Shown one piece after another: positions 255 through 23,742 of a DNA stretch of 42,278 nucleotides (position 1 is the first letter of the stretch; the number at the start of each line of letters is the position of its first letter). The stretch is taken from NCBI GenBank assembly GCA_016188145.1, contig JACPIJ010000068.1, positions 1 to 42,278 on the forward strand. The letters run 5' to 3'. The notes under the pieces are model-generated. The model was not told the origin of the DNA. It worked only from the letters and a program-made list of their open reading frames with translations, and made no database searches. Source of the stretch: Candidatus Woesearchaeota archaeon (GTDB lineage: Archaea; Nanobdellota; Nanobdellia; Woesearchaeales; UBA10216). The translations under genes were made by a program, and so were the position numbers.

Positions 255-1109
255 TTGGCACGGGAAGCCGTGCAGTACTTGGACAAGGGCATTCTGCCTT
301 TGAAGGTAGAGGCGATAGACGCATTCCTTGGCAGAGCTGAAAGAACACACCGCAGTGCTACACGATTTAACCCAACTTTGCCATTTACATACCATGACGA
401 GCATGGAGTTAGCCATAAAGTTCAGCCAGAGTACGGATACGGCTGCAATCAATTCCCTGACGAAAGGGTAAGGCAGCTGTACGGGGCTGACGTAAGCTGG
501 GTGCCTGTTGTCGGACTGAATCCTAAAGAGAGGCACATAGCTCAACTTCCCATAACTGTTTATGGCACATGCCTGTACATAATGGATCATGATCATTGGA
601 ACAACCTTGCGCCTTTATCAATAATGTTCACGCCACGTAATCATCCACTTAGTAGTAAGTTCATTTCACACGAAAGAGTTCACGGCGTGAGAGACAGACC
701 TTTCCTCTCAGATGATGGTCTTCTTCACACCGAATTTTATGCGTATGCGGCATGTGGCAATGTTGCGAGCATACTTTTTGGCGCTGATGCCCTTGGACAC
801 CAGCTTAACCTAAACCCAGGCATTTTGACTTTAGGGGCACAAATCATGTCGCAAAGCCTCCGAAGTGTGCTGGCCTATTTTGATTTCAAAAAAACGCTGA
901 AAAATGCCGAAATGGCGCTGAGTGAAGAATTTGGCACCCGAGGAGCGCGGTACGTTATTGGAAGGGCGTCTTTTGGGGAAGCAAAGGAGATTGCAGGATG
1001 CAAAAACAGCAGGGGACTGGAAGAGCTGCTGCAGAATAAGGCAGGCGATGGGGCAGGCGATGGTTTACGATGGGAGCTTCTCCAACAAAAATTGGAGGCG
1101 GTGGACTGA
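255..1109 (+). CDS. Hypothetical protein with an HExxH motif (HERVH); first complete gene of the cassette
   Basis: 284-aa ORF from a TTG start. No early in-frame ATG exists, so the start is uncertain. HERVH is encoded at 669-683. The stop lies 1 nt before the next ATG. Confidence 0.55.
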   Translation: MAREAVQYLDKGILPLKVEAIDAFLGRAERTHRSATRFNPTLPFTYHDEHGVSHKVQPEYGYGCNQFPDERVRQLYGADVSWVPVVGLNPKERHIAQLPITVYGTCLYIMDHDHWNNLAPLSIMFTPRNHPLSSKFISHERVHGVRDRPFLSDDGLLHTEFYAYAACGNVASILFGADALGHQLNLNPGILTLGAQIMSQSLRSVLAYFDFKKTLKNAEMALSEEFGTRGARYVIGRASFGEAKEIAGCKNSRGLEELLQNKAGDGAGDGLRWELLQQKLEAVD

Positions 1110-1110: not shown

Positions 1111-1923
1111 ATGGTTAATGAACATAATGGGGGCGGCGGTTATGATCCCTCTTTTGGCGGCGGTGTTGGCCCGGGCGGTATTCCTTTCGGTGATGATTCT
1201 AGGGATTCAGGCGGCAGCGATGATCCTGGCGGCGATGGCGGTCAGGGCGACTATGATCCCGGACAGCATAGTCAGGATAGCGGTGGCTGGCCTAGCTGGC
1301 TTGGCTGGTGGCCAGCCTTCCTAAGTTTACTTGTCACCGAAGATAAAGGCAATCAGGGAAAAAGGGAAGGAGCATCGAGCAGCGGCGGTCCGAGGCGAAG
1401 AGGATTTTACAGCGGCCACATGAGTTACGGCAGAGTTCATGTTGATTCTGGCGATTTGGAATACGCGATTGACGAGTCTTACAGAGGTGTCGGCGCAGTT
1501 ACGCTGAAGACGATTTCAAACGGCATCACTCTGGCCTTGTCAGATGACGGGAAAGTGTATGTGAGCGGATTCATAAGTCGTGAGCCTGAAATCAGGGCAG
1601 GCCGCCTGTTCATTGATGGCTTACGGGGAATCCTGAAATTGCCTAAAAACAAGGAAAGCCTCACGCTTGAAGCCAATCTCACCTCTGGAGATGTCCGTGG
1701 CGCTATCGCTCACAGCGGCAGAATCGCTACAGTATCTGGCGGCATTAATCTGGAGTTGTATGCGCCACTTGCACTTGAGGCAAGTGTTGTCAATGGCGAA
1801 GTTTCTGTTATAGGAATGATGTCTGAAGGCAGGGGCGTCTACAGCCCGCCTAATGCGCAACCGAAGGGAAAACTTTCTCTTCAAACTACATCTGGCGACA
1901 TTAACGTGAGGTATATGCTATAA
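1111..1923 (+). CDS. Gly/Asp-rich protein with a C-terminal DUF4097-like (putative adhesin) beta-solenoid domain
   Basis: ATG at 1111 directly follows the previous stop at 1107-1109, so the track ORF starting at 922 is an overlapping extension. The C-terminus has repeated xSGDVx / SGGINL / NGEVSV / TSGDINV strands. It is clearly paralogous to the C-terminus of the J-domain protein (3545-4801). Confidence 0.65.
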   Translation: MVNEHNGGGGYDPSFGGGVGPGGIPFGDDSRDSGGSDDPGGDGGQGDYDPGQHSQDSGGWPSWLGWWPAFLSLLVTEDKGNQGKREGASSSGGPRRRGFYSGHMSYGRVHVDSGDLEYAIDESYRGVGAVTLKTISNGITLALSDDGKVYVSGFISREPEIRAGRLFIDGLRGILKLPKNKESLTLEANLTSGDVRGAIAHSGRIATVSGGINLELYAPLALEASVVNGEVSVIGMMSEGRGVYSPPNAQPKGKLSLQTTSGDINVRYML

Positions 1924-1934: not shown

Positions 1935-3539
1935 ATGAACATTTTAAGCAAGCTGCCGATTGGAATGGGAAATCAAAGGTACGAGCCGAACTTTCACGTG
2001 GAAGTGAGAGGACTTGACAGGATTGTTGAGAAGGCTGTTTCAGGCTTAGAAGCCGGCTCAGAAGGTGAGTACAGTCTGGGAAGGGCAGCAATGGCCCAGT
2101 CTCCAGTGCAGGAAGTCGGGGTAGTGCTGAAGCCCTCAAAGAGTGGGGTTTACGGTTATGCGGTTAATGCTTCAAAGAAGCTTATGACGCAAGTTACGGG
2201 CTTTGTTCCCTCTTACACCTTGGAAGCAGTTATAGACGTTGATGGCAGCAGGCCATACCTACATGCCGACCTGAAAGCGTTAGAAGAAGCAGGCTTCCGT
2301 GTTGTTGGCAACAGAAAAAGTGACGCTCTCCTTCACATTTTCAATGACAAACTTTTTGGGGGAGGTAGGCATGCGGAATATTCTGCAAAACCGCAAAGTG
2401 CAACGCTCACATATTCAGCCAAGGCAGAAAACCATACCACAGAAGAAGTAGGCAGGGCGATAACAGGCTTTGCCCAACTGCTTGAGCTCATAGTCAATGG
2501 CGCCTACAAGGCAGCAGGAAAAAGCCCCCCTGACACAACGCTCAACTTCGAGCTTGGCGAAAAAATCAGCAGGGTAAAGGGGCAGAAAATCCAGCCAGTC
2601 AGCAGCCAAAATGGCGGGCACAGCGATGCATACGCTAAGAAGGCTGACGGAGCTGACGAAGATAACTTTACCCAGGCTTTGCAGCCAGCAAAAAGCGATG
2701 TAACGTTCAAAGACATTGGCGGCTACCGAAATGTAAAGGGGCAGCTTAGTGATTTCCTTCTTGCAATAAAAAACCCGCAGGAAGCCAGGAGGCAAGGCTA
2801 CACGCCATCAAAAGGCATTCTGCTGCATGGACCGCCCGGGACAGGCAAAACGTTGTTTGGCAAAGCGCTGGCGGGTGAGTTAGGAACAGAGTTCATCTAC
2901 TACAACGCCTCTGACATGCTGCAGAAGTATGTGGGGGACTCTCCAAAGGCGCTGAAAGCAGCTTTTGAGGGAGCGCAGCAGATAGCCGACAAGACAAAAA
3001 AACCCGTCATCCTGTTTATTGACGAGATTGACTCGGCATTCCCGCAAAGGGGAACTGCCCATGACGTTAAGATCGATCTAGTCAACCTCTTCAACCAATA
3101 TATGGACGGCTTTGAAAGCAGGAGGATTCCGAACGTGTGGGTAGTCGGAGCAACCAACAGGCTACGTGAAATGGACGAAAGCGCAACCCGCGCAGGGCGA
3201 TTCGAAAAGATTGAAGTTCCGCTTCCTGACCTGGAAGCAAGGACAGCCATATTCCAAGTTACGAAGGACTCCCTTCAAAGGGAAGCAGGAACGCAGCTGT
3301 TTGAGCCAGCGATAGACTACGCTACGCTGGCAAAGGCTGCTGAAAAATTCTCAGGGGCAGACATTGCTGATGTAATGAGGGAAGCAAGGCAAAAAGCATT
3401 CAGGCAGGCGGCAGTTTCCGGCCAAAAGAATGTTGTGCCTACAACAGCTGCACAGCTTGAAGAAGAAATAGCAGCTTACAAGCAGCAACAGAAGCGTGAC
3501 GGCAAAAGCAAAAATACACTTGGCTTCAAAAAGGACTGA
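1935..3539 (+). CDS. Classic-clade AAA ATPase (single Cdc48/FtsH/Vps4-like AAA module) with a unique ~270-aa N-terminal domain
   Basis: Walker A is GPPGTGKT (2829-2852) and Walker B is ILFIDEIDS. The second region of homology is VVGATNRLREMDESATRAGRFEKIEV. A GGTGA Shine-Dalgarno-like sequence sits upstream of the ATG. Confidence 0.9.
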   Translation: MNILSKLPIGMGNQRYEPNFHVEVRGLDRIVEKAVSGLEAGSEGEYSLGRAAMAQSPVQEVGVVLKPSKSGVYGYAVNASKKLMTQVTGFVPSYTLEAVIDVDGSRPYLHADLKALEEAGFRVVGNRKSDALLHIFNDKLFGGGRHAEYSAKPQSATLTYSAKAENHTTEEVGRAITGFAQLLELIVNGAYKAAGKSPPDTTLNFELGEKISRVKGQKIQPVSSQNGGHSDAYAKKADGADEDNFTQALQPAKSDVTFKDIGGYRNVKGQLSDFLLAIKNPQEARRQGYTPSKGILLHGPPGTGKTLFGKALAGELGTEFIYYNASDMLQKYVGDSPKALKAAFEGAQQIADKTKKPVILFIDEIDSAFPQRGTAHDVKIDLVNLFNQYMDGFESRRIPNVWVVGATNRLREMDESATRAGRFEKIEVPLPDLEARTAIFQVTKDSLQREAGTQLFEPAIDYATLAKAAEKFSGADIADVMREARQKAFRQAAVSGQKNVVPTTAAQLEEEIAAYKQQQKRDGKSKNTLGFKKD

Positions 3540-3544: not shown

Positions 3545-4801
3545 ATGGCATTTGACCCAAGGCAGCAAAGGAAATTTGAAGAGCTTCAGGCAAGACTCCG
3601 GAAGAGCTACGGCAGCGGGAGTCTGTACGATGCGCTTGGGGTTAAGCCTGGCGCAACTGAGGATGAAATCACAAAGCGGTATAGGAAAATGGCGTTTGAA
3701 TTTCATCCTGACCGCAACAAGGCTCCAGATGCCGAGCAGAGGTTCAAGGACCTGCAGGCAATTAATAATATCTTATCAAAACCGGAAGAAAGGGCAAGCT
3801 ACGATGCGTGGCTTGCAACGGCAGGAGGGGCAGGAGCTGGCTCAACCGGGCAGCCTGGTGCCAAGCAATGGTCGCAGCATCACAGTAATCAGGGGGCTGG
3901 CGCTTTTGGAAGCAGCAGCCACAGCACTGGCAGCAGCGATAGCAGAAGCGGCGTTTATGTCAACGGCGTTGAGTTGCCGAAAGAGTTTGCCGGAAGACGG
4001 ACGGTTATCATAAACGGCGGGCGTCAGGTAATAATCTCCTATGGCGGAACAAAATATGCGGAGGTCAACGGCGGTGTTCATGTCCATGACATGCCTCCTG
4101 GCGGAAAGATAAAATTTGACGGCTTGACCATAGAATACCAAAGCTCTGGAAGCGGCAGCCAGCCTCATGTGAGGGTTTCCAAAGGCGGGATTTTCAGCAG
4201 GCAGGAGATTGTAACGAGCGGTGGTGGCGTAATCAACATAGGTAATGGCGGTTCTGTTGTTATGGGAGGAGTCCACAGTTCAGGAAGCTCTTGGCATGGT
4301 GGCGGCGGATTTTATGGAAGCGGCCTTGAAACAGAGATAAACCGGGCATACGATAACATCAGCGCAGTTTCTGTGACGCATGGCGATGGCGACATACGAT
4401 TCGGATTTTCCAAAGATAGAAGGGTGTATGTCAAAGGAAATGTTTCAGAGAAACCTCTGGTTTCTGATGGAAAGCTTGCAGTTGCCGGCCTGGATGGCAT
4501 CCTGGAACTTCTGCTGCCGAAAGAAAGGGAGCTAAACTTGTCAGTTCTTACGGGGGATGGCGCGTTACGCGGCGACATCGCTCACCAAGGCAGAATAGCA
4601 ACAGGCGATGGCCCAATCAGCCTTAACCTGCACTCGCCGCTTGAGCTGCAGCTGAGAACAGGATATGGCCTTGTTAACGTTTCAAACATGATAAGCAGGG
4701 GAGGAGGAATCTACTCGCCGCCAAACCAGAAAAGCACGGGAAAGCTTGAAGTGAAGACAGGAGACGGCAGCATAAGCATCAACTACGTTGGAAGGGCTTA
4801 G
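3545..4801 (+). CDS. J-domain (DnaJ N-terminal domain) protein with a Gly/Ser-rich linker and a DUF4097-like beta-solenoid C-terminus
   Basis: The N-terminus reads LYDALGVKPGATEDEITKRYRKMAFEFHPDRNKAPDAEQRFKDLQAINNILSKPEERASYD, with HPD encoded at 3704-3712. There is no Zn-finger or DnaJ C-terminal domain. The C-terminus is paralogous to gene 1111-1923. Confidence 0.9.
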   Translation: MAFDPRQQRKFEELQARLRKSYGSGSLYDALGVKPGATEDEITKRYRKMAFEFHPDRNKAPDAEQRFKDLQAINNILSKPEERASYDAWLATAGGAGAGSTGQPGAKQWSQHHSNQGAGAFGSSSHSTGSSDSRSGVYVNGVELPKEFAGRRTVIINGGRQVIISYGGTKYAEVNGGVHVHDMPPGGKIKFDGLTIEYQSSGSGSQPHVRVSKGGIFSRQEIVTSGGGVINIGNGGSVVMGGVHSSGSSWHGGGGFYGSGLETEINRAYDNISAVSVTHGDGDIRFGFSKDRRVYVKGNVSEKPLVSDGKLAVAGLDGILELLLPKERELNLSVLTGDGALRGDIAHQGRIATGDGPISLNLHSPLELQLRTGYGLVNVSNMISRGGGIYSPPNQKSTGKLEVKTGDGSISINYVGRA

Positions 4802-4807: not shown

Positions 4808-6694
4808 ATGGGACAGGCAACCGCTGAAAACGCTGAAAAAACAAATGAGAAAACAGAAGCATCACCGCACATACTGGAAGAGCTGGTAAAGGCAGCCCCA
4901 GGAGCGGGCTTTGAAGAGAAAGAGCAGGCTTTGCATTCTACGCTGCTGCTGGCTTTTTACCGCGCAGCACAGGCTGTTGTTTCGAAAGAAGTAATAATTC
5001 CCATGTTCTTTGGAGTTAGTTACAATAATAATACCAGGCAGATTAAGTTCGTAAATCATGGGGGAACTGCGCCAGTGCAGAGCAAGGGCAGAACTGACGT
5101 AAACGGGCTTGACCTGATTATTTCTGCAACTTTAAGAGGTGGGATGCCCCTGCTTCTTGAAGGCGACACAGGAACAGGAAAGACGCTCATTACAGAGAAG
5201 TACTTGGCAACCATTCTTGAAAGGGAAAACTATGTCACGATGACCCTGAGCCAGAACCAGTTTGCAAACAACCCGCTGCAGCCGTTCACTAAGAAAGACC
5301 CTAACGACGTTACAAAGACGCATATTGACAAGGATGCGCTGCGAAGAATAGCTGCTCTGTTTGTTGACGAGCTCAACAGAGGGCAAACGCAAACCCTTCT
5401 CCAGTTGGCTTACGGAAGAATAAACGTTGGCGGGGAGTTTGACGAAGTGGCCATACCAGTTCCAGAACTAACCCCTAATGGCGTTGACTACTCCGAAAAA
5501 GGCAGGGTAAAGAAGCTTTTGTTCATAGGCGCCCAGAACCCTTCGCAGCAGAAGGACGCGACATTCACAGGCACTATGCAGCTCGACCCAGCCCTTTCAA
5601 ACAGGCTGCTGACTGTTGAGTTTCCGATTTTGACAAAAAGCGCTGGCGCCTCTATAATGGTGGTTGAAAGCGGCAACGGCTTGCATGACAAGTTTTTGGA
5701 AAGCGTTGCGCAGTATCTGGAAAAGTCTTTTGGCGCCAAGGTTGACAGGGACAGGCTCAAGGAGCAATGGCTGTCAACTTATGCATATGTTGCCGACCCA
5801 AAGAGGACTGACAAGGCTTTCTTGCGCTCCTCATTGGAGCTTGCTGACATGCTGGCAGTTGCCCTCGCAGGCGATGTAGCAAGCACATACGAGCAAGAAC
5901 AGAAAATGATTGCAAACTGGGACGCTTACATATCACACATATCACCGACCCTCAGGACAAATTTCTCGCTTGGCCAAACAAAGATAGACGCCACAGACGA
6001 GGCCGTGCAGCGCTTGGAAGAGGTGGTTGGAACGTTTGAAAAAACCGCAATGCCAAGGGACTTGATAAAGATAAAGAATGTAGCTGATATATTCTCAACC
6101 ATCAGAGGCATCAAAACAGCCTTCGCGGCACAAAACCCTGCACAAACTTACGTAAAAAAGTCTGGCTACGTGACTGTTGAAGACATTGCAGCTGCCTCAA
6201 CGCTTGTTGCCAAGAGCAAGCAGTTCAAGGCGACGGCAGACCCCATAATCATAGTGAACTCAATCCTTACAGAATATACTGCGCTGGCGGAAGAAGCTAC
6301 CGCAGGGATCACGGGCAGGCAGATACCGTTTGACAGCAATGACTACGAAGCAGGAATACTGAACTACACCTTCGGACACGCTTGGGAATCAGCAAGTAAC
6401 CATAAGGGCCTGGTGCAAAAACTAAGTGAATACGCTGTTATGCTGAAAAGCTTGCAAACAGGCACAGGAGCTAACGAGCTCAGGCGCTTAATAGTCGCAA
6501 GAACAGTTGGGGATTTGGCAACATTGAGCGGTTTCCTGATTGACAACGCAGCAGATGTTGACTCATTGCTTGGCAAGGCAAAAGGCGATGTCGGCGCAGC
6601 CTTTGCAGGACTAAAGCAAATGTACGAAGAACAGCGCGAAAACCCGCTGATGCCAGAAATTTACAAGCACAGGCTTGAGAAAATGCTTTCATGA
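4808..6694 (+). CDS. MoxR-class AAA+ ATPase (AAA_3/AAA_5-like)
   Basis: Walker A is GDTGTGKT (5162-5185). Walker B and sensor read FVDELNRGQTQTLLQLAYGR. The downstream segment IGAQNPSQQ...GTMQLDPALSNRLL matches the MoxR pattern DEiNR...AtqNP...LpeAqlDRF. Confidence 0.85.
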   Translation: MGQATAENAEKTNEKTEASPHILEELVKAAPGAGFEEKEQALHSTLLLAFYRAAQAVVSKEVIIPMFFGVSYNNNTRQIKFVNHGGTAPVQSKGRTDVNGLDLIISATLRGGMPLLLEGDTGTGKTLITEKYLATILERENYVTMTLSQNQFANNPLQPFTKKDPNDVTKTHIDKDALRRIAALFVDELNRGQTQTLLQLAYGRINVGGEFDEVAIPVPELTPNGVDYSEKGRVKKLLFIGAQNPSQQKDATFTGTMQLDPALSNRLLTVEFPILTKSAGASIMVVESGNGLHDKFLESVAQYLEKSFGAKVDRDRLKEQWLSTYAYVADPKRTDKAFLRSSLELADMLAVALAGDVASTYEQEQKMIANWDAYISHISPTLRTNFSLGQTKIDATDEAVQRLEEVVGTFEKTAMPRDLIKIKNVADIFSTIRGIKTAFAAQNPAQTYVKKSGYVTVEDIAAASTLVAKSKQFKATADPIIIVNSILTEYTALAEEATAGITGRQIPFDSNDYEAGILNYTFGHAWESASNHKGLVQKLSEYAVMLKSLQTGTGANELRRLIVARTVGDLATLSGFLIDNAADVDSLLGKAKGDVGAAFAGLKQMYEEQRENPLMPEIYKHRLEKMLS

Positions 6695-7755
6695 TGGCGA
6701 ACAATATGGAACCTGGAAAATCTGGTGGCAGAAAAGATGAGGACGTTGGCACAGGAGGGCCAAGATTAGTTAGAGTTAGCAGAACAATAAGGCCGGATAA
6801 GAAAGGCTGGGAAAAAATACTGGGGAAAACGCCTGGCGAAGCCCATGCTCAAGGTGGAAATGATGCCGGGCAAGAAGGCCAGCCCAACGCTCCAGCGCAA
6901 GAACAGCCCTCCCCTTCCGAAGCATCGCCTTCAACTGCGCCAGCTGCGAATTTGGCAAACTTAACTAGGTCCAATTACCCCATCCAGTTCAGAACTGACG
7001 TAATAGAGCACCTTTACGAAATGCTGAAGGGCAAAGGGCTTCCGAACCTGCTAAGCATTCAAGCACTCTCGCAGCCTTTCCAGAACGTTGAAGAGCCGCT
7101 TGCGTATGCGCATGCAACGCTTCTTGAAAACATGTTCGGCCCAGAAGGCTTTGACATCACTAACTCAGCAGGAAAGTTCCCAACAGACGAGTATAGGTGC
7201 TTTTCCTCCCTTCAGGCTAACCCTGTCAGTTTAGCGAAGGTCAGAAATTACGTAACAGCCCTGTTAGGGCATGAAGCTCTTATGGAACTATCAGCCTCGC
7301 AAATAGCAGAAGCCGGGCTGGAATCAATGATTGAAATAGGAAGCCTGCCAAAATACTTTCCCAACTCGCGCGGCCTAAAATTCGCAGAAATGTTCAAAAG
7401 CCGTGTCTCGTGCAAAGAGCCCTTCAACTCAGCATACTTCATCGTAATGGAGATGCAGCCGCCAAGCACAAGGCTGCTAGTTGCCAAAGCACTTGAAGCC
7501 GCTTATGCAGACGGAAGCCTGGCAGCTCCTGCGCTGCAAACTTTTCCAACAGACACTTTTGATTACTTTTTTTTCTGCTTAAAGTTAACTCCAAGGGTGG
7601 AAAGAAGCCGAGCTTATCTTAAGATTCCTAACCAGGCCCTGCAAAGGGAAGCGCAAAAGCTTGGCGTCAATGATACGGCACCTCATGCTGCTGCTTATGA
7701 AAAAGCCTGGGGCAGCCTGGTTGAGAGGCTGCATGAAAAATTGATAGGTCTGTAA
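6691..7755 (+). CDS. Hypothetical protein, paralog A (P/Q/A-rich N-terminus, conserved C-terminal domain)
   Basis: Its ATG overlaps the MoxR stop (ATGA at 6691-6694). It is paralogous to 7769-8785, with shared blocks EEPxAYAHAxLL and IVMxMQPPSTRLLVAKAxEA. Confidence 0.7.
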   Translation: MMANNMEPGKSGGRKDEDVGTGGPRLVRVSRTIRPDKKGWEKILGKTPGEAHAQGGNDAGQEGQPNAPAQEQPSPSEASPSTAPAANLANLTRSNYPIQFRTDVIEHLYEMLKGKGLPNLLSIQALSQPFQNVEEPLAYAHATLLENMFGPEGFDITNSAGKFPTDEYRCFSSLQANPVSLAKVRNYVTALLGHEALMELSASQIAEAGLESMIEIGSLPKYFPNSRGLKFAEMFKSRVSCKEPFNSAYFIVMEMQPPSTRLLVAKALEAAYADGSLAAPALQTFPTDTFDYFFFCLKLTPRVERSRAYLKIPNQALQREAQKLGVNDTAPHAAAYEKAWGSLVERLHEKLIGL

Positions 7756-7768
7756 AGGAAAGGCGAGC

Positions 7769-8785
7769 ATGATGGCTGAGAGAACAATAAAACCGGACTG
7801 GGGAAAGGTGCTTGGGAAAGGTCCGCAACCTTTGAAAAAGCCGCAAGAGGCGGGGCAAGATGCTGGGCAGCAGGGGCAGCAGGCCCAAACTTTGCCAGCT
7901 ACGCATGAAGATGCAGTGACTGCTGCGGCTTCGGTGGCAACGGACTACCCGCTGCAATTAGTGATTGACGTGGCCTCGCACTTGTATAGCTTGCTGAAGG
8001 GTAAAAGCCTTCCAGCCCCACAAGCGGTTCAGGACATTGCGCAAGTTATCAAAACTTTTGAAGAGCCCACGGCTTACGCGCACGCAATCCTGCTGGTTGA
8101 AAAGTTAGGGATAGAAAGCTTTACCATAAGCAACAGCGTAGTTAAACTGCCAAATGATTTGCAAGATTCACAGCGAAAGAAAAAACAAAAGACGCCTTTG
8201 CAGGACTATTTTAGGGTAGTTTCCGGGACATTTGCAAATTCAGTCACAGCTGAAAAAGCCCGAGTATACGTGGCTGCGCTGTTTGGGCCAGACGCCCTTA
8301 ATGCGCATCCGGCTAATTACCTGGCACAAGCCAGCTTAGAAACTAAACTTGCGCTGTCAAGCCTGCCACAACTCCTTCCCCACATGCCAGAAACAGGTTT
8401 TCTGCAAATGTTCCAAAAGCCTCTGCACTCAGGGCCTTTTAACTCCGAATACTACATTGTCATGGCGATGCAGCCGCCAAGCACAAGGCTGCTAGTTGCC
8501 AAAGCGATTGAAGCCACTTCCGGAAGCCAAAATTTACCAGCGTCCCCGCCCGAGATTTTCCCGAATGACAAATTTGGCACGGATTACCTGCCTGTTGCAG
8601 AGAATAGACATTTTGACAATGAGTTCCATTCAAAAGTTTCATTAGACGCCCTAAAAAGTGAAGGGAAAAAGCTTGGTATAAAGGACACGAACAAACCTGT
8701 AGAAAGCTACCGTGCTGCGTGGGAAAAGTTACACTACCAATTTCAGACAGCACCTTACAGCTCACCAGTAGACATTCAAGGGTGA
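7769..8785 (+). CDS. Hypothetical protein, paralog B
   Basis: It starts 13 nt after the previous stop and is preceded by AGGAAAGG. It is paralogous to 6691-7755. Confidence 0.7.
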   Translation: MMAERTIKPDWGKVLGKGPQPLKKPQEAGQDAGQQGQQAQTLPATHEDAVTAAASVATDYPLQLVIDVASHLYSLLKGKSLPAPQAVQDIAQVIKTFEEPTAYAHAILLVEKLGIESFTISNSVVKLPNDLQDSQRKKKQKTPLQDYFRVVSGTFANSVTAEKARVYVAALFGPDALNAHPANYLAQASLETKLALSSLPQLLPHMPETGFLQMFQKPLHSGPFNSEYYIVMAMQPPSTRLLVAKAIEATSGSQNLPASPPEIFPNDKFGTDYLPVAENRHFDNEFHSKVSLDALKSEGKKLGIKDTNKPVESYRAAWEKLHYQFQTAPYSSPVDIQG

Positions 8786-8790
8786 AGCCG

Positions 8791-11025
8791 ATGCTTATAC
8801 CTGAATCCTTAGATAAAGCGGTTGCTGCTTGGGAACAGCACCGCGATGCGCAGTTCCCGATTTTCTCAGACATAACAGTAGAGACAGAGCCGAAGAAGGG
8901 CAAGCTAGGGAAAAATCCTAGGCAGCAGGCGCTCTGGTCGTTTTCAACTAACAACAAAAAGATACATGCCTACATCTTCAAGCCAGAGGACATTGAGATG
9001 ATTTTCAGGCAGGTTGTTGTGCCGCTATACGCAAAAGGAGCATACGGCAAGGACATGACTGCATTGCTCAAGGACCCCCAACATTTTGAGGCGTTTCTAG
9101 AGGCTATTGCGTTCCACAACAGCCTCTCCCTGCTAAACCACGAACTGCTCCACCCAGCGGGATGCCCAAACAGCAAGGAAGACGAGGAAAAGATTGACCT
9201 GGCGCTTTACGAAGGTGTAAAGGAGGCAATGCCGCAGCTCGGAGCAAAAGACCTCGTCCAAAAAGCAGGCAACGTAAGAAATTTTGTTTGGGACCACGTC
9301 GATGACCTGTTCCAGTACTACTTCATAACCACTGATACCCCTTACAGGAGAAACCTTGAGTCTGTGCTGGCAGCCAACAGCCACAGCGTAAACGGAACAG
9401 CAATTACCAAATTCCCAGAAGGCATAATTCCACTATTTGACGTTGTATCGGTCGCTTCTTTCAAAACAGCAGGTGCAACAGGCACAGTCCAGACGCCAAG
9501 CGCCCTTTACCCGCTTACAAGGATATTCTACGCTATGCTTTTCTGCGGCGACAGCGAGACCAGAAATGGAATATACGAGCATTTCATGCGAGCCATAAAA
9601 CAGTTCAGAGACCTCGACTACGCACAATTCACAGAGCAAAGGGCAAACAGCTTAATAAAAAAGGCGATGCTTGGCATGGTCTCGGAGCTTGATAGCTCTG
9701 AGCTAAGCGCGAAGGGCATAAGCTATTCGCAGTTTGAGGCCGCTGTTGATGGGATGTTCAAAAACATAGCAAAACCGCAGTACAGCTTACCACACCGTGA
9801 AGTTCTTGAAGGCCTGGCTGCAGTGCTGATGGACAAAGAAACAAGGTACAAAGCCGTAAAGGGCTTCATAAAGCCGCTAGCGCCTTACATTTCAATCCAG
9901 CATTCAGAGGACAGGCACGAGCACGACGACGAGGAAGAAGGAGGTGGAGGAGGGGCAAGCTCTGCCCTTGAAAACCTGCTTGGCCAGCTTCCAAAGGACG
10001 AGGCAAACCAGCTTCTCCAAGACATCGCAAACTCCGGCCAGCCGGCAACGGCAAAAGATGCAAAGCTACAGCTTCAAGCCATTGACGAGCATTACAAGCG
10101 CAACGCCAAAGAAGTAGCATTGAGAAGCCCGAAGCCTGAGGTAACAACAATAGACCTTGGAAAGGTGAAAGAGTGGCAGCCTGTGAGGTCAGAAACAGTA
10201 ACCGAGCAGGAGCTGCGCGACAATTACAACATTGATGCCCTAATAGAGTTTGCAGCAACTACAGGATTACCAGTGCTTCAAAAGCTTGACGAAAACAACT
10301 GGAAAATCAGCTACTTCGAAGAAAAAGAGTTACCGCTTACCTCGTACACTTTTCAAAGCACAGGAATAGAGCTGCCGCGGAATGTTGTCTTCGTTGTTGA
10401 CACGTCAACCAGCATGCTTGAAGGCGCCAGGCTATCGGGCGCATCACTGCAAAGCCAAATAGCAGCCCTTACTTCATCAAGGAATGGAAACCGCTTTGTC
10501 GGAACAGGCAACAAATACGATGCCCTGATGAACGTTGTCTACGGTCTACTGAAGACAATGGACAAGGCAAGCAAGGACTATGGTGCTCCTGTAGAGCTTG
10601 TTACTGTAAATTACTCAGGAACTACTGTGGCTAATGGACCTGTAAGCGTACAGGACGCACTATCACAGGCAGCAAGCCCTGTAAAGACCAACCTGTTAAG
10701 CCCGCAGCTTGGAGTAACAACGCTTGACGCACTAGTACTACAAAGCGTGGAAAAGCAGCTCCAGCCCGGAAAAACGGTCTGGCTGGTATTCTGCGACGGA
10801 GACTTGCGAGGAGTAACTACGCCAGTGTTCCAGCAATTTGCAAAACTTGCTGGGAAGAAGGACAACAGCATCGTCTACTTCCAGCTTTACGACCAGGGAG
10901 GGGCTTTTGGAGGCTTTATGAGCCAACTAGCAGCAGCCAGGCCGAACGTGTCCTATAACCACATAACAGACATGAACCAGGTAACAAAAGCTGCAATGAG
11001 CGTGCTGGTAAAATACGCCAAATGA
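8791..11025 (+). CDS. HExxH putative metallopeptidase-like domain + C-terminal VWA domain with MIDAS motif (DUF2201-like MoxR partner)
   Basis: ATG at 8791 lies 5 nt after the previous stop, so the track start at 8719 (GTG) overlaps gene H. NHELLHP is encoded at 9139-9153. The VWA MIDAS motif is VVFVVDTSTSM (DxSxS at 10399-10413). An acidic/Gly linker (HDDEEEGGGGG) separates the two domains. Confidence 0.8.
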   Translation: MLIPESLDKAVAAWEQHRDAQFPIFSDITVETEPKKGKLGKNPRQQALWSFSTNNKKIHAYIFKPEDIEMIFRQVVVPLYAKGAYGKDMTALLKDPQHFEAFLEAIAFHNSLSLLNHELLHPAGCPNSKEDEEKIDLALYEGVKEAMPQLGAKDLVQKAGNVRNFVWDHVDDLFQYYFITTDTPYRRNLESVLAANSHSVNGTAITKFPEGIIPLFDVVSVASFKTAGATGTVQTPSALYPLTRIFYAMLFCGDSETRNGIYEHFMRAIKQFRDLDYAQFTEQRANSLIKKAMLGMVSELDSSELSAKGISYSQFEAAVDGMFKNIAKPQYSLPHREVLEGLAAVLMDKETRYKAVKGFIKPLAPYISIQHSEDRHEHDDEEEGGGGGASSALENLLGQLPKDEANQLLQDIANSGQPATAKDAKLQLQAIDEHYKRNAKEVALRSPKPEVTTIDLGKVKEWQPVRSETVTEQELRDNYNIDALIEFAATTGLPVLQKLDENNWKISYFEEKELPLTSYTFQSTGIELPRNVVFVVDTSTSMLEGARLSGASLQSQIAALTSSRNGNRFVGTGNKYDALMNVVYGLLKTMDKASKDYGAPVELVTVNYSGTTVANGPVSVQDALSQAASPVKTNLLSPQLGVTTLDALVLQSVEKQLQPGKTVWLVFCDGDLRGVTTPVFQQFAKLAGKKDNSIVYFQLYDQGGAFGGFMSQLAAARPNVSYNHITDMNQVTKAAMSVLVKYAK

Positions 11026-11034
11026 GTGATAAAA

Positions 11035-12174
11035 ATGGCATTTGACCAGCTTACCGAACACCTCGGCAATGAACTCTCTGACCTTGAAGGTAAAGTCTCC
11101 GCAGCAGTCATGGAGCGCCTCGAAGCTTACGACGCCATTACTTCTTCGGAATTCTACCTGCCCGTAATCGACTATTTCTTCCTTGCACACCAGCAAGGAG
11201 GCAAAAGCCACATTGACCTGGCGAGAGAGGTTGGAATTGGAAAGAGCACAGTGAGGAAAATATTTCTTCTTTACGGCTTACCGATAGTTGGCAGGGCAGA
11301 AGCCACCAAAAGAAAACTGGCCGACCCCGATTACCAAAAGAGAGTTGCACAGACCTCAAGGGAAACAATGTACCGGCTGAAGCAGGACCCTGAATTCCGA
11401 AAGAAGCAAGCCGCCGCTAGTAGCGCAGTTTTTCATAATCTTTGGGACAATCCTGAGTTTGCCCAGGAAGTTGCAGAAAGGGGAAGGAAGCAATTTAACG
11501 AAAGGTGGAAGGATGCCGGATTCAGGCAGCGGCAACATGACGGTCTGGAAAAGGAGCTTGAAAAAAGGTGGCACGACCCGGAAGCCAACCCTGCCTTCAG
11601 AGAAAGGTTTGCAGAAACCCATAAAAAATCAACAAGGCAGCTATGGGAAAATCCGCAGTTTAGAAAGAAGATTGCCGAGGCATCAAGGGATGCAAGATAC
11701 CGCCCTGAAGGCCTGAATTCAAGAACGCACATTCCTTCAATTCATGGCTACAGGCGCGACATAGGATTTTACGCACAATCAATGTGGGAGGCAAACCTTG
11801 CAAGGGCATTCATGACCAGCCATGCCAACTTTTCAAGAAGGCAAACATTCCAGTTGAGGGTTCCCGAAGAGCACAGGCAAGCAATTGGCTCAGAAAAAAC
11901 AGATCTCACTGTTGACTTCGCGGTACGTGACCCCAAAACCCACAAGGTGACATTGTATGAGGTAATGGCGCACCCTCTCGAAGCACCTGTAGGCAGGATA
12001 AAACTCGAGCTGCTGCGGCAGCAGTTCCCGCAATTCAGGGTTGTGGCTGTCGATCCAAAATATTACGAAACGTTAAGAAACGAATTTGCCGCAAAAATAA
12101 GCCGTTCGGGATGGCTTTGCGGCTGGGAAACAACAAAGGACAACCTGAGAACAAACCCTGAAAAATACGCGTGA
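11035..12174 (+). CDS. HTH + six tandem ~21-aa repeats + C-terminal PD-(D/E)xK-like (TnsA-N/restriction-endonuclease-fold-like) domain
   Basis: The ATG lies 9 nt after the VWA gene stop. The HTH reads IDLAREVGIGKSTVRKIF. The repeats have consensus [DN]P[EQ]F[RA]xK...LW and span roughly nt 11310-11700. The C-terminus carries SMWEAN ... TVDFAV ... LYEVM, an E / D / E-x-(K replaced by M) pattern. Confidence 0.7.
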   Translation: MAFDQLTEHLGNELSDLEGKVSAAVMERLEAYDAITSSEFYLPVIDYFFLAHQQGGKSHIDLAREVGIGKSTVRKIFLLYGLPIVGRAEATKRKLADPDYQKRVAQTSRETMYRLKQDPEFRKKQAAASSAVFHNLWDNPEFAQEVAERGRKQFNERWKDAGFRQRQHDGLEKELEKRWHDPEANPAFRERFAETHKKSTRQLWENPQFRKKIAEASRDARYRPEGLNSRTHIPSIHGYRRDIGFYAQSMWEANLARAFMTSHANFSRRQTFQLRVPEEHRQAIGSEKTDLTVDFAVRDPKTHKVTLYEVMAHPLEAPVGRIKLELLRQQFPQFRVVAVDPKYYETLRNEFAAKISRSGWLCGWETTKDNLRTNPEKYA

Positions 12175-13111: not shown

Positions 13112-13483
13112 ATGAAGGTGAATGGAAAAATGGAACAGCCTGAAGGGCAGCAGATTAACATTGAAGTGCAGAACGGCACAGATTTCTTTGCGGACCAGGT
13201 AAGCGTGAGCCACAACCCGCTCAGGTTCATACTTGATTTCACGAGGACAACGCCAAGGATTGACGGCAGCACGACAGGGCAGCCGAGGCTTGTCATGAGC
13301 CACAATGTCGTAATGATAGACCCTTACCTCGCTTTGGAGTTTGTCAACGTCCTCAAGGACAACATTGCAAAATACGAGAAGCGCCATGGCAAGATAGCAA
13401 GGCCTGGCGCATTGAAAAAGCTTGACGAGGAAGCAAGGAAGGCAGGCAAGTCGGACGCCAAGAAGCAGGAATATTTTGGATAA
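13112..13483 (+). CDS. DUF3467-family protein
   Basis: INIEV...FADQVSVSHNPLRFILDFTR...LKDNIAKYEKRHG resembles the DUF3467 signature as I recall it. An alternative start is ATG 13130, which lies behind an AGGTGA. Confidence 0.7.
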   Translation: MKVNGKMEQPEGQQINIEVQNGTDFFADQVSVSHNPLRFILDFTRTTPRIDGSTTGQPRLVMSHNVVMIDPYLALEFVNVLKDNIAKYEKRHGKIARPGALKKLDEEARKAGKSDAKKQEYFG

Positions 13484-13550
13484 TGTGACCTTTTTGCGAA
13501 ACCACGTCGTGCAAGCACGACGGGTCCCATCGCCATAGGCGATGTGGAAA

Positions 13551-13565
13551 GGTCAATCAAAAAAC
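13551..13565 (+). promoter_or_regulatory. Promoter-like motif GGTCAATCAAAAAAC upstream of the thermosome gene
   Basis: It ends 25 nt before ATG 13590. The same motif lies at 15709-15722, 21 nt before ATG 15743. Variants occur at 18423-18436, 29308-29322, 29341-29355, 34322-34336 and 34355-34368. Confidence 0.55.
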
Positions 13566-13589
13566 GACGATTTCAGGAGGGATGTGAGG

Positions 13590-15224
13590 ATGGCACAGCA
13601 GATACAGCCGATATTTATTTTGCCGGAAGGCAGCCAGAGGACAACCGGAAGGAACGCGCAGCGAGCCAACATAATGGCCGCAAAAGCGGTTTCCGAGACA
13701 GTGAGGACTACTCTTGGGCCTAAGGGAATGGACAAGATGCTCGTCGACAACCTTGGAGACATTGTCATAACAAATGATGGAGTAACGATTCTTGAGGAGA
13801 TGAATGTTGAGCATCCTGCTGCAAAGATGATCGTTGAAGTAGCAAAGACGCAGGAAGACGAGATAGGTGATGGCACAACAACAGCGGTAGTTATAGCAGG
13901 AGAATTGCTGAAAAAGGCAGAGGACCTGCTTGACCAGGACGTGCACCCCACGGTAGTTGTGAGAGGCTACAGGATGGCCGCTGAAAAAGCGCTTGAGGTT
14001 CTCAACAAGATTGCCGAGCCAATCGCTGAAAAGGACACGGCAATGCTTGAGATGATTGCCATGACAGCAATGACTGGAAAGGGCGCTGAGAAGGCAAAGG
14101 AGCAGCTCTCCAAACTGGCTGTGAAGGCAGTCAAGGACGTTGCCGACCTGAAGGATGGCAAGCTCTCTGTAAACAAGGACAACATAAAGATAGAAAAAAA
14201 GGTTGGCGGAGCGGTTGAGGACTCTGAGCTTGTTGAAGGCATAATCCTTGACAAGGAAAAGGTCCATCCGGGAATGGCTGACGTTGTCAGGAATGCCAGG
14301 GTTGCACTGATTGACGTTGCTGTTGAAGTCAAGAGCACAGAGACCGAAGCCAAGATACAGCTCACGGACCCGAACCAGCTGCAGGGCTTCATCGACATGG
14401 AAGAGAAAATCCTCAGGGACAAGGTTGAAAAGATAGCAAAGTCCGGAGCCAATGTGGTGTTCTGCCAGAAAGGCATAGACGACCTTGCCCAGCACTTCAT
14501 GGCAAAGAAAGGAATGTATGCTGCCAGAAGGGTTAGCAAGAGCGACATGGAAAAGCTTGCAAGGGCAACAGGAGCAAAGATAGTCACCAGCCTTGAAGAC
14601 CTGTCTGCTTCCGACCTTGGAGCCTCAGGCGTTGTTGAGGCAAAGAAGGTTGGGGATGAAGACATGACCTTTGTCAAGGAATGCAAGAATGCCAAAGCGG
14701 TTACGCTCCTGATAAGGGGCGGGACAGCGCACGTTGTTGACGAGGTCAAAAGGGCGGTTGAGGACGCAATTGGCGACGTTGCAAGCGCGCTAGCAAGCGG
14801 AAAAGTGGTTGCCGGAGCAGGCGCAACCGAAATAGAGCTCGCACTGCAGCTCAGAAGGTATGCGGGATCGCTATCAGGCAGGGAACAATTAGCGGTAAAC
14901 TCATTTGCAGAGGCAATAGAGATAATCCCAAAAACACTTGCGGAGAACTCGGGGCTTGACCCCATAGACGTCCTTACAGAGCTGAAGAGCCAGCATGACA
15001 AGGGAAGGAAGTGGGCAGGCATAGACGTCTTCACAGGCAAAATAATGGATGCCTGGAAGGAAGGCGTTCTTGAGCCATTAAAGGTAAAGACCCAGGCCAT
15101 AAGTTCAGCAAGCGAAGTTGCAGGAATGATATTAAGAATAGATGATGTCATTGCCTCTGGAAAATCAGAGTCCAGAGGCCCACCAAGCATGCCCGGGCCA
15201 GAGGGAATGGGCGGTGACTATTAG
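13590..15224 (+). CDS. ths: Thermosome subunit (group II chaperonin)
   Basis: The N-terminus is [24 protein letters not shown]. Signature segments [19 protein letters not shown] and GDGTTTAVV are present, and the C-terminus has a GGM-like tail. GGAGG lies upstream of ATG 13590, so the track start at 13542 is an upstream extension. Confidence 0.95.
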
Positions 15225-18767: not shown

Positions 18768-19183
18768 TAGCCACTTTATAGCCAAAGCCAACAAGTGCTG
18801 TTGTTGAGGTTAAAAAATAAGAAAAAAGCCGGGTTCCGAAACCGGCAAACGCGCTTGCTTTATTTGCAAGCAACCATCCAGGTCTTTGTATTCTTAATAA
18901 GTAGACTACTTAATATACTTTCGCCTGAAAATTTTTCGATTTTTGGGCTTATGAGCACTGGACACTGGACAGATGCCCGGCGAGGGTATTTAAACTACTT
19001 CTTCTAAAACGCTCGGAGGACCGCAGAGCTGCCAAATTATGCTTTTCCCCTGCTTCGCATGGTCGCTAATCGCTAAAAGCAATTAGGCAGCTCCGCTCAG
19101 TGTCCTCCTCGCCCTAAACGTAAGATTTCTCAGCCAAGCGTGAGAAATCTCAACAATTGATTGAGGTCTCAGAGGTAAAGAAA

Positions 19184-19939
19184 ATGAGAAGATTGCCAGA
19201 AATGCTTCAGCAAGAAATCGAGTTAGAAATAGCCGAAGGCACTTCTTTAAATGCAATATCGAATTCTTACAATATTGGTAAATCAACGTTGTATTATTAC
19301 TATAAGAAAATTAAAGGGAAGAAATTTGTTCCTCCGAATGTAACTCCTGTTCTTTCGGAAGAAACTGGAGAAATCCTAGGGATTTTTGCAGGCGATGGAA
19401 GCCAATATTTTGAGGCGAGGAACTACCATTATGAAATTAATGTGCATTTTGGACATAAAAAGTTAGCCTATGCCAATTATGTTAAAGCACTATTTGAAGG
19501 GTTTTTTAAGAAGAAGTTTAGGTTACAAAGAGAATCGCATGAATTAAGACTCAGAACGTATTCTAAAGAAATTTTTTATTTCTTCAATAATTTTATATCT
19601 TATAATCCTAAAATAAAACATTCGACTGTTAAGCTAATTTCAACGTCAGTACCTGCTAATTTTAAGATTGGTTTCCTACGAGGTTTATTTGATACTGACG
19701 GATCTATACTCTACATTAGAAAACAAAAAAGAGTACGAATAGCTTACTGTACAACATCTTTAGAACTCATGAGACAAGTGAAATCCATAATGGACGAATT
19801 CGGTTTAAAATACGGGGTTTACACAGACCACCCAAAAAGACATAAGGACATTTATCGTATGACTTTGTGGAAAGAAAGCAACAACATATTTTTAAATACG
19901 ATAGAACCTTTCAAAAAACGTTTATTATTGGGCCGGTAA
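19184..19939 (+). CDS. Free-standing double-motif LAGLIDADG homing-endonuclease-like protein with an N-terminal HTH
   Basis: The two LAGLIDADG-type motifs are ILGIFAGDGSQYF and GFLRGLFDTDGSI. The HTH reads ISNSYNIGKSTLYYYY. ATG 19184 lies behind GAGGT. The gene is markedly AT-rich by eye. Confidence 0.85.
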   Translation: MRRLPEMLQQEIELEIAEGTSLNAISNSYNIGKSTLYYYYKKIKGKKFVPPNVTPVLSEETGEILGIFAGDGSQYFEARNYHYEINVHFGHKKLAYANYVKALFEGFFKKKFRLQRESHELRLRTYSKEIFYFFNNFISYNPKIKHSTVKLISTSVPANFKIGFLRGLFDTDGSILYIRKQKRVRIAYCTTSLELMRQVKSIMDEFGLKYGVYTDHPKRHKDIYRMTLWKESNNIFLNTIEPFKKRLLLGR

Positions 19940-20028
19940 TTCAACCTGGAATCGGTTAAAACGGTGGGTAATAGAATGCGCCGCTGGCCGCGGTGATGCT
20001 TCGGGTTCAAATCCCGACCGGTCCACCA
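19930..20028 (+). tRNA. tRNA-Ala (anticodon GGC) with a ~22-nt non-canonical intron in the D-loop and an encoded CCA
   Basis: The acceptor GGGCCGG/CCGGTCC contains a G3:U70 pair. The D-arm is ATTC-AACCTGG[intron 19950-19971]TA-GAAT. The anticodon arm is CGCCG-CTGGCCG-CGGTG and the T-arm is TCGGG-TTCAAAT-CCCGA. The gene ends in ACCA followed by a T-run. The spliced length is 77 nt. C at position 37 is unusual. Confidence 0.75.
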
Positions 20029-22478: not shown

Positions 22479-22583
22479 TTGAGGCGCAGAGGCCTGTTTT
22501 TAAGCCTTTCCCGTTTGGGATGGAGCGGATACGTGGTTGTTGTAAATATTTATAAAAAAGCTGTTGCTGCCAACTCGGTTAAG

Positions 22584-23742
22584 ATGAAGATAGCTCTTGT
22601 CTGCCCTTACGACATAGCATACCCTGGAGGGGTAACCAATCACGTTACCCAGTTTGCCCAATACGCAAGGAAAGTGGGGCACGACGTGGCAGTAATAGCA
22701 CCTACCTCACGAAAAGGCGCATACGAAGGGGTTATTTCGTCCGGGAAAGCAATCCCTTTTCCAATAAAAGGCGGCACTGTGCCGAGGCTTTCTTTCTCAT
22801 TCTGGAATTATCCTGAAATAAGAAAACTGTTTGTAAGCGAGAAATTCGACGTGATACATGTTCACGAGCCGGGGGTTCCGCTACTCGGCTTCGCTGCACT
22901 GGCCTGCGCGCCCCAGCGCCTTAGCGCAATAGCTGCCACGTTTCACACCAATGCGCCTTACAACTTCTTGTACAAGACTTACGGCAAAGTTGCCAAGCTG
23001 TCAAAGCTTGCTGACAAGCTGTTGAGGAAGGTTGACGTGAAAATAGCCGTTTCCGAAGCAGCCAAAATGTTTGCCTCAAGATACGTCACCGGGGAATACT
23101 GCATTATTCCTAACGGCGTAGACGTGGAGCACTTCTCGCCTGAGACAAAGCCAATCGGGCATTACAGGGATGGCAAGGTTAACATCCTGTTTGTAGGCAG
23201 GCTTGGGAACTACGAAAAAAGGAAAGGGCTGAAGTATTTGGTTTCGGCTTTCAACAAGCTGCATGCCAACCATCCAAACGCCAGGCTGCTGGTTGTGGGG
23301 CCAGGCAAGCCCCAGGTATTACGCAACAGCTGACATCTTTTGCTCGCCAGCAACGCATGGCGAAAGCTTCGGAATGGTCCTTGTCGAGGCAATGGCTTCC
23401 GGAAAGCCTGTTGTGGCTTCTAACATTGACGGCTACAGGAACGTCGTTTTAGGCAGCAGCGGAAGCGGCAGGAACAGCAATGCCGTTAGCACTGGTGGCT
23501 TTGATGGCTTGGTCAGAACCGAAGCCGGAATCCTGGTGCCTCCGGGAAATCCGCATGCGCTGGCTGACGCTTTGGAAGAGCTGGTCACTAACGAAGCCTT
23601 AAGGCTCAGCATGGGAAAGAGCGGGAGACGAATAGTCATCAAAAACTTCAGCTGGGACGTTGTTGCGCCGCAGATCCTGGCGGTTTATGAGAGAGTTATT
23701 GCGGCAAAACGGCAGCGAGAAGTAGTAACTGCAAAAGTTTAA
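22584..23742 (+). pseudogene. GT4-family glycosyltransferase, disrupted by an internal deletion and frameshift
   Basis: The N-terminal half (22584-23333) reads MKIALVCPYD...YPGGV...ILFVGRLG..KG...ARLLVVGPGKP and then hits a stop. The C-terminal half continues in the +1 frame from about 23318 (YYATADIFCSP..ESFGMVLVEAMASGKPVVAS...GILVPPGNP). The roughly 35-45 aa that normally separate these motifs are missing. Confidence 0.7.

Follow-up and report, generated by a model that had tools for sequence, protein, structure and literature searches.

The open reading frame (ORF) at 3545..4801 of a 42,278-nucleotide stretch of Candidatus Woesearchaeota DNA (contig JACPIJ010000068.1; this whole stretch is hereafter called the window) starts with an ATG and encodes a 418-residue protein, J-Toastrack, in which an N-terminal J-domain is fused to a predicted C-terminal Toastrack β-helix. 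Comparison with related loci showed that the conserved genomic partner of J-Toastrack is the AAA ATPase encoded directly upstream and, more precisely, the clade-specific N-domain of this ATPase. What is new here is a J-protein of class C that has a Toastrack as its targeting module and is genomically coupled to an uncharacterised AAA subfamily; the architecture is uncommon, not revolutionary. We tentatively propose, as a plausible reading and not yet a secure one, that J-Toastrack tethers Hsp70 to the adjacent AAA unfoldase in a proteostasis cluster.

The window is archaeal and encodes a thermosome, an archaeal-type glutamyl-tRNA synthetase (GluRS), SRP54, and a Dpo4-like polymerase. Its closest relatives are metagenome-assembled genomes (MAGs) labelled Candidatus Woesearchaeota; one of them, nzgw63, is placed by GTDB in Nanoarchaeota; Woesearchaeales; f_UBA10216 and is 76–87% complete (PMC9938205 supplement). 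The genes from 255 to 12174 are close-packed and all on the + strand, as are the other window features up to 15224 that are described below. In order they encode ORF_A, a head-less Toastrack protein, the AAA ATPase, J-Toastrack, an AAA_5-type ATPase, two paralogous uncharacterised proteins, a 768-aa protein, and a 382-aa protein. The J-Toastrack gene is the only J-domain gene in the window. Its sequence was present in groundwater DNA metagenomes only, and no RNA-seq runs containing it were found.

Domain architecture of J-Toastrack

The J-domain (residues ∼24–92; 3614..3820) matches the Pfam DnaJ profile PF00226 over residues 27–87 with an E-value of 4.2e-21 and 75 bits, against a cutoff of 27.8. 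It was modelled by AlphaFold with a predicted local distance difference test score (pLDDT) of ∼96. Foldseek matched the model to many J-domain structures at a probability of 1.0, including the DnaK-bound J-domain 5NRO_B, with a root-mean-square deviation of 1.6 Å over 62 residues. The HPD motif (H54-P55-D56; 3704..3712) is invariant in all seven close homologs. These data bear out the canonical J-domain with an intact HPD that had been described in the original prediction, which was made without database searches. The J-domain is preceded by an extra helix (residues 5–22; 3557..3610), helical in both AlphaFold models and also kept in P0005-7, P0089, and the short J-proteins of the relatives.

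The remainder of the protein was best resolved in a second AlphaFold model, for which 50 subfamily sequences were aligned (mean pLDDT 81.5); the first model, based on 7 homologs, was good for the J-domain and the C-terminus only. A Gly/Ser/Gln-rich linker (residues 96–134; 3830..3946) is predicted to be disordered in both models (pLDDT <50). It is followed by a middle β-domain (residues 135–215; 3947..4189) that features the motif ‘NGVELPxEF’ and has a pLDDT of 83–95 in the model from the deeper alignment. A second, Gly/Ser-rich linker (residues 216–260; 4190..4324) is mostly disordered, with pLDDT <50 for residues 227–260, and leads into the C-terminal β-helix (residues 261–418; 4325..4798), modelled at a pLDDT of 95–98. 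The top Foldseek match of the J-Toastrack model was 4QRK (E 1.3e-10, probability 1.0, target-normalised template modelling score 0.52), and the β-helix also matched 4YGU and 4OPW; both 4QRK and 4OPW are cited as reference Toastrack structures (PMC11237479). By its predicted fold, the C-terminal domain is a true Toastrack/DUF4097 β-helix. Pfam DUF4097 (PF13349) does not match this domain at E-values up to 1, and it matches four of eight family members, at best with 3.4e-6. The Gly/Ser-rich linker and the DUF4097-like domain noted earlier thus both stand, the latter confirmed at the level of fold, and the middle β-domain had been overlooked. J-Toastrack contains no transmembrane segment.

Outside the J-domain, J-Toastrack departs from canonical (class A/B) DnaJ. 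The DnaJ zinc-finger (PF00684) and C-terminal (PF01556) domains were absent in a Pfam scan of the protein, in agreement with the original prediction. The canonical DnaJ model TIGR02349 scored 72 bits, below its cutoff of 377, and the linkers are rich in Gly, Ser, and Gln and are not of the Gly/Phe type. J-Toastrack more resembles the class C (type III) J-proteins such as DjlA, HscB, Sec63, and auxilin (PMC10410713), in which a J-domain with an HPD is fused to an unrelated targeting domain by flexible linkers. Like these proteins it has neither the zinc finger nor the DnaJ C-terminal client-binding domains, and local recruitment of Hsp70 would be expected. It differs from the class C J-proteins surveyed in the main text of that study in its targeting part, which consists of a Toastrack β-helix and a subfamily-specific β-domain. 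It also differs from the catalogued class C J-proteins in its DPANN host and in its conserved genomic linkage to an AAA N-domain.

The Toastrack proteins, comprising DUF4097, DUF2154, and DUF2807, include LiaG, the C-terminus of LiaF, and YvlB, with 4QRK and 4OPW as PDB entries (Ravi et al. 2024, PMC11237479), and are sporadic in archaea (PMC11237479). Different from the Toastrack systems described so far, the window and the related loci contain no PspC, LiaI-LiaF-TM, SHOCT, or two-component system. The heads found here are a J-domain, a TPR region, or none, the host is archaeal, and the J-Toastrack sequence is too divergent for the Pfam model.

The breadth of the architecture depended strongly on the search method. 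Word-indexed searches returned 7 full-length members and, by a C-terminal profile, 2 extra relatives; such profile searches missed nearly all members, and with the AAA N-domain profile even its own queries. Exhaustive HMMER over 1.84 billion representatives recovered 37 sequences at E ≤ 1e-30, 94 at ≤ 1e-10, and 1,173 at ≤ 1e-3, so that claims of rarity from the word-indexed search alone would be wrong. Among 185,579 GTDB species representatives two genomes matched, with patterns that reach close relatives only. In 104 subfamily sequences the middle domain was found in 45 and a J-domain in 21, the latter all with an HPD (21/21); most of the 45 sequences with a middle domain have no J-domain, and a typical subfamily member is a protein of ∼260 aa consisting of the middle domain and Toastrack. 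The predicted middle β-domain is the hallmark of the Toastrack subfamily to which J-Toastrack belongs. The J fusion forms 20 or more clusters at 50% identity, each with an HPD and a conserved Hsp70-binding surface; at least 14 of these clusters came in addition to the members from the word-indexed search, some from Tara Oceans samples. Judged from these sequences, the fusion is a recurrent minority form, rare but not unique. It is not a common DnaJ-like family that had already been annotated, part of what would have spoken against the original prediction: the members are annotated merely as ‘DnaJ domain-containing protein’ or COG0484, J-domains go unmentioned in the Toastrack paper (PMC11237479), and the main text of a survey of 280,000 J-protein sequences contains no occurrence of DUF4097 (PMC10410713).

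The AAA ATPase and its N-domain

The AAA ATPase gene (1935..3539) is flanked by Toastrack genes on both sides, with gaps of 11 nt to the upstream gene and 5 nt from its stop codon to the J-Toastrack start. The upstream gene (1111..1923; ATG at 1111) encodes a Toastrack-only paralog of 270 aa, identical in sequence to P0081, with a Gly/Asp/Pro-rich N-terminus in place of a J-domain. This paralog is 42% identical to residues 261–415 of J-Toastrack (E 4e-32) and matches Pfam Toastrack DUF4097 (E 1e-5).

The ATPase has a single classic AAA module with a lid (residues 254–513; 2694..3473), which matches PF00004 (8.5e-34) and AAA_lid_3. Its translation contains Walker A (GPPGTGKT), Walker B (ILFIDEID), a pore loop (KYVG), and Arg fingers (in RAGRF). 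Among PDB sequences the ATPase is closest to the D2 ring of archaeal VAT/Cdc48 (1.6e-79); the NCBIfam model of CdvC, a Vps4-like protein, matches with 1.3e-38, and Cdc48 and PAN match better. TIGR01243 gave 159 bits against a cutoff of 803, and the tandem D1 and D2 rings are not present. The protein thus resembles archaeal Cdc48/VAT in an AAA module nearest to D2, with intact pore loop and Arg fingers, and in an N-domain that is a putative adaptor site. It is distinguished from Cdc48/VAT by having one AAA ring, an N-domain unrelated in sequence to the double-psi-barrel N-domain of Cdc48, and no HbYX motif, as read from its C-terminus (...GFKKD). No MIT domain is recognisable in the ATPase.

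The N-terminal domain (residues 1–250; 1935..2684) has no Pfam or PDB sequence match, and no relatives of it were detected outside the clade of the window. Scans of JGI metagenomes with this N-domain or with the Toastrack domain gave no matches. Sequence searches of the PDB likewise returned nothing meaningful for the Toastrack profile, the AAA N-domain, or the MoxR-like and 768-aa proteins.

The link between this domain and Toastrack emerged from comparison of related loci. L003 and L004 are syntenic with the window, sharing a 92% identical thermosome and DUF3467, GluRS, EamA, and GT4 in the same order. In both, ORF_A, AAA, and J-Toastrack are followed by a 309-aa helical protein and a short J-protein and then by DUF3467 and the thermosome gene; the MoxR-like block is missing. 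L001 holds two modules, one consisting of AAA, a short J-protein, and J-Toastrack and the other of AAA and then an 850-aa TPR protein with a C-terminal Toastrack. The N-domain is fused to AAA in the window, in L001 (twice), and in L003/L004; in L014 and L015 a stand-alone homolog of the N-domain directly follows J-Toastrack (BLAST E 4e-10 and 2e-24, respectively), and L014 also encodes a head-less Toastrack. A Toastrack-subfamily gene therefore lies no more than two genes from an N-domain in the window, L003/L004, both L001 modules, L014, and L015, and AAA or a stand-alone N-domain adjoins a Toastrack protein in six of the seven informative Woesearchaeales loci. On the P0007 contig the order is J-Toastrack, a 217-aa protein, and a 253-aa AAA protein, which may represent a further case of N-domain and AAA, as split genes. 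A hidden Markov model built from the N-domains, including the L014 and L015 copies, found no further copies in the other loci. The AAA link is established only within the Woesearchaeales clade around the window. Because the head of the Toastrack protein varies (J, TPR, or none) while Toastrack and the N-domain both persist, these two domains are the candidate interacting pair.

The genes directly downstream of J-Toastrack do not belong to this module. The block at 4808..11025 begins with an ATPase of 628 aa (4808..6694) that matches AAA_5 at 24.3 bits (cutoff 22) and the CobS-like phrog_249 at 1.9e-6. It continues with two paralogous uncharacterised proteins, 37% identical to each other (6691..7755 and 7769..8785), and ends with the 768-aa protein (8719..11025), which has no Pfam or PDB match and carries a MIDAS-like ‘DTSTS’ (‘VVFVVDTSTSM’; metal-ion-dependent adhesion site). 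In L003/L004, L001, and L014 no such block separates J-Toastrack from the genes downstream of it; the block is a window-specific insertion outside the conserved module, and its MoxR-like gene is therefore not part of that module. The two flanking ATPases of the original prediction fared differently: the classic AAA upstream is confirmed, the ‘MoxR’ assignment downstream is weakly supported by its marginal AAA_5 score, and the idea that this neighbour belongs to the same machine is contradicted by the absence of the block in the related loci.

The block itself may be a divergent MoxR-vWA system, inserted between J-Toastrack and the gene at 11026..12174. It resembles MoxR-vWA pairs in that, a few genes after an AAA_5-type ATPase, it encodes a large protein with a MIDAS-like DxSxS motif. 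It differs from them in that no vWA domain is detected by Pfam in the 768-aa protein and the ATPase is atypically long, with a marginal AAA_5 match; nor is the block conserved with J-Toastrack. A canonical MoxR-vWA pair is encoded in L012, 7 kb from the marine J-Toastracks.

The genes beyond the insertion are shared again. In the window they include DUF3467 (13112..13483; PF11950, 8e-11) and the thermosome gene (13542..15224; PF00118, 9e-185). DUF3467 and then the thermosome gene follow the module in L003 and L004, and in L001 and on the P0007 contig the gene after DUF3467 is cut at the contig end; the DUF3467/thermosome context of the module is seen in four lineages. A role in proteostasis would fit this fixed position.

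Hsp70 and the proposed role of J-Toastrack

The residues through which a J-domain contacts Hsp70 are well preserved in the J-Toastrack family. All 24 related J-domains compared have an intact HPD. At the positions equivalent to those of E. coli DnaJ, Lys or Arg occupies K26 in 22/24, an aromatic residue Y25 in 22/24, and a basic residue R63 in 24/24, and F47, K48, and D67 are retained in 16/24, 18/24, and 22/24, respectively; the Y66 equivalent is conserved as well. The basic face of helix II is kept, with Lys or Arg at the equivalents of R22, K23, and K26. Such conservation of contact residues reflects purifying selection on the Hsp70-binding face. A complete bacterial-type DnaK-DnaJ-GrpE system is present in many DPANN (PMC8204110) and in 74.2% of Woesearchaeota genomes (PMC8407392), a figure that would be lowered by MAG incompleteness. 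The relatives carry two or three J-proteins in the same cluster, which would be hard to explain if no Hsp70 were present. We consider it quite probable that this genome has an Hsp70 that J-Toastrack serves. On the same three grounds (the contact residues, the frequency of DnaK-DnaJ-GrpE, and the several J-proteins per cluster) the label ‘orphan’ given to the J-domain in the original prediction is unproven and probably wrong at the genome level. Of the two alternatives offered there, an Hsp70 encoded elsewhere and recruited is favoured over a non-Hsp70 partner.

The short J-proteins of the relatives (∼196–220 aa where complete) are encoded at L003 4548..5210, L001 9381..9971, and L011 1617..2102. 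They share the extra N-terminal helix of J-Toastrack and have a helical C-terminal domain. P0006 joins a J-domain, this helical domain, and Toastrack, thereby bridging both protein types. The window itself has no short J-protein. An ARPP-1 protein encoded beside a marine J-Toastrack was considered as an Hsp70-like partner and rejected, as ARPP-1 is the unrelated ‘ARG and Rhodanese-Phosphatase-associated’ domain.

In the mechanism that we tentatively propose, the J-domain would stimulate a bacterial-type Hsp70 (DnaK), the product of a gene in another part of the genome, to hydrolyse ATP. Toastrack and the middle domain, held on flexible Gly/Ser linkers, would serve as the targeting part. Its docking site would be the N-domain, either as part of the single-ring, Cdc48/VAT-D2-like AAA unfoldase or as a stand-alone copy, and Hsp70 and the AAA motor would thereby meet on shared clients for unfolding or disaggregation. 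The head-less (1111..1923) and TPR-headed (L001) Toastracks would be alternative adaptors for the same AAA motor. The proposal of Toastrack as a flat protein-docking platform (PMC11237479) speaks in favour of the adaptor function. By analogy, the logic would be that of Hsp70 with ClpB or Hsp104, in which J-protein-driven Hsp70 and a hexameric AAA+ threading motor work on the same client. In ClpB two AAA+ rings are present and the M-domain makes direct contact with Hsp70; the AAA of the window is single-ring and Cdc48-D2-like, and a J-protein adaptor at its N-domain is proposed. The fullest version, in which interchangeable-head Toastrack adaptors on a dedicated AAA N-domain make up a DPANN Hsp70-AAA+ bi-chaperone or disaggregase built from parts unlike Hsp70-ClpB, is a speculation that we regard as unlikely to hold in full. 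Its extreme form, in genomes truly without Hsp70, would have the J-domain act directly on the AAA motor.

J-domain proteins direct Hsp70 to its sites of action, and every newly recognised targeting domain indicates a further task for Hsp70. The linkage to the N-domain provides a concrete candidate partner for Toastrack, whose function is unknown even in bacteria, and for an uncharacterised AAA subfamily. If true, the proposal would show how genome-reduced DPANN wire a bacterial-type DnaK system into archaeal AAA machinery; if the coupling is not real, J-Toastrack is one more among thousands of class C J-protein architectures.

Several observations weigh against the proposed tethering of Hsp70 to the AAA unfoldase. 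A DnaK probe found no match in all six frames of the window, and Pfam scans of the window ORFs found neither Hsp70 nor GrpE, just as the original prediction had stated for the vicinity of the gene. Neither was seen on ∼10 related contigs, and the nearest J-only matches (P0008 and P0010) revealed no dnaK locus of a DPANN archaeon. The pairing of Toastrack with the N-domain is drawn from gene neighbourhood in one Woesearchaeales family, in which shared synteny inflates the count of ‘independent’ cases, and the distant J-Toastrack loci L012/L013 (marine) and L016 have no AAA or N-domain nearby. The small membrane-anchored proteins encoded in the L001 and L015 operons suit a membrane-proximal role at least equally.

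Such a role is the basis of an alternative that we regard as unlikely but worth serious attention, a membrane-proximal stress scaffold like Psp or Lia. The β-helix and the small membrane-anchored proteins would form a sub-membrane complex, to which the J-domain would recruit Hsp70, and the AAA protein, with the same low likelihood, would be a Vps4-like remodeller and not a general unfoldase. Published work describes Toastrack as a docking platform inside the cell, near the membrane, with links to PspC and LiaF and, through PspA/Snf7, to classical AAA ATPases (PMC11237479). The conserved proteins of ∼135 aa in L001 and L015 have an N-terminal hydrophobic anchor, a 309-aa helical coiled-coil protein is encoded between the two J-protein genes in L003/L004, and the CdvC match of the AAA points in the same direction. 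On the other hand, PspA/Snf7, PspC, and LiaI-LiaF-TM were undetected in any locus examined, J-Toastrack has no transmembrane segment, and the AAA has no recognisable MIT domain and is closer to Cdc48 and PAN than to CdvC. The window contig starts at ORF_A, and any small membrane-protein genes further upstream lie outside it.

The two remaining explanations are far less probable. If the J-domain were a true orphan, the genome would have no Hsp70 and the domain would have been repurposed to regulate the adjacent classic AAA or the AAA_5/MoxR-like protein. The empty Hsp70 and GrpE searches are what this would predict, translation of the J-protein is coupled to that of the AAA across the 5-nt gap, and about a quarter of Woesearchaeota MAGs have no detectable DnaK-DnaJ-GrpE (PMC8407392). 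MAG incompleteness, as in nzgw63, can nevertheless explain much of the 26% lacking the system, the MoxR-like gene is not conserved beside J-Toastrack, and conservation of the Hsp70-contact residues over 24 J-domains is unexpected after a switch of partner. We also know of no case in which an HPD J-domain activates a non-Hsp70 ATPase, and we hold this explanation to be very improbable. Hardly better are the prospects of the cluster being cargo of a mobile or defence island, a variable-region module whose J-domain hijacks or monitors the Hsp70 of the cell. The region does look like a hotspot of gene turnover, with the MoxR/vWA block inserted in the window and two modules in L001. AbiEii in L001, HEPN in L014, excisionase-like HTH_17 proteins, and, in another part of the window, an IS200 transposase add to this picture, and the AAA matches models of the defence ATPase IetA (7e-27). 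That match is far weaker than the one to VAT/Cdc48, and PADLOC matches are absent for every other cluster protein, which leaves no pairing with an IetS protease as in the IetAS (Ietron) defence system. Searches of IMG/VR viral contigs, GenBank phages, and plasmids turned up no relatives, the cluster keeps its chromosomal position beside DUF3467 and the thermosome gene from lineage to lineage, and the GC content of the window is unremarkable. A viral, plasmid, or defence origin of the cluster was accordingly rejected, as the PADLOC, viral, phage, and plasmid searches gave it no support.

Neighbouring genes and other features of the window

The first gene of the operon, ORF_A (255..1109), encodes a 284-aa protein with an HExxH motif (H139–H143) and a downstream Glu (E160, in ‘EFYAYAA’), all invariant in an alignment of the three orthologs. 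The orthologs are 56% identical and lie directly upstream of the AAA gene in L003/L004; ORF_A is conserved in the closest relatives only. A Pfam search of ORF_A gave only an insignificant match to M56 (E 0.33), so that no profile backs a metallopeptidase, and at the level of its motifs ORF_A is a possible zincin-type zinc metallopeptidase. Encoded next to an AAA ATPase, such a peptidase would form an FtsH-like arrangement in trans.

A conserved neighbour gene lies at the other end of the cluster. The 382-aa protein (11026..12174) has a weak helix-turn-helix (HTH) and repeated (D/N)PEF motifs. Its homolog in L014 (9430..10587) is 70% identical and encoded two genes downstream of J-Toastrack, and L001 contains a 74% identical, 64-aa C-terminal fragment (11330..11524) directly after J-Toastrack.

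Upstream of the operon of small proteins and J-Toastrack lie genes for an uncharacterised protein of ∼364–401 aa and for a divergently transcribed regulator of the two-HTH_24/AsnC type (L001 3471..5583; L014 305..2501; L015 4046..6243). The regulator, 70–75% identical between lineages, is a candidate for the control of the cluster; the contig of the window begins too late to show this region.

Elsewhere in the window, tRNA-Ala(GGC) at 19930..20025 (+) has an extra insertion of ∼24 nt in the D-arm region, where it has 28 nt compared with 4 in the Rfam model. Rfam scored it at 39.7 bits only when the region was searched alone and missed it in the whole-window run; ARAGORN placed it at 19949..20028. 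The insertion is probably a non-canonically placed intron. Inside the 5′ end of the tRNA lies the end of a free-standing LAGLIDADG endonuclease ORF (19157..19939), in a stretch of low GC content (0.40). Two overlapping ORFs together make up a GT4 glycosyltransferase, 22479..23333 with the N-terminal GT4 domain and 23263..23742 with Glycos_transf_1. Its L003 ortholog is a single 387-aa gene, partly outside the stretch compared, and the split reflects a frameshift pseudogene or else an error of assembly. The IS200-like Y1 transposase is encoded at 28453..28950 (−; PF01797, 3.7e-08). The contig that contains L004 and L008 (CAZBFZ010000028.1) is labelled ‘uncultured Methanosarcinales archaeon’; the proteins of the shared region are mostly 98–100% identical to those of the Woesearchaeota MAG L003, and the public taxonomic label is probably wrong.

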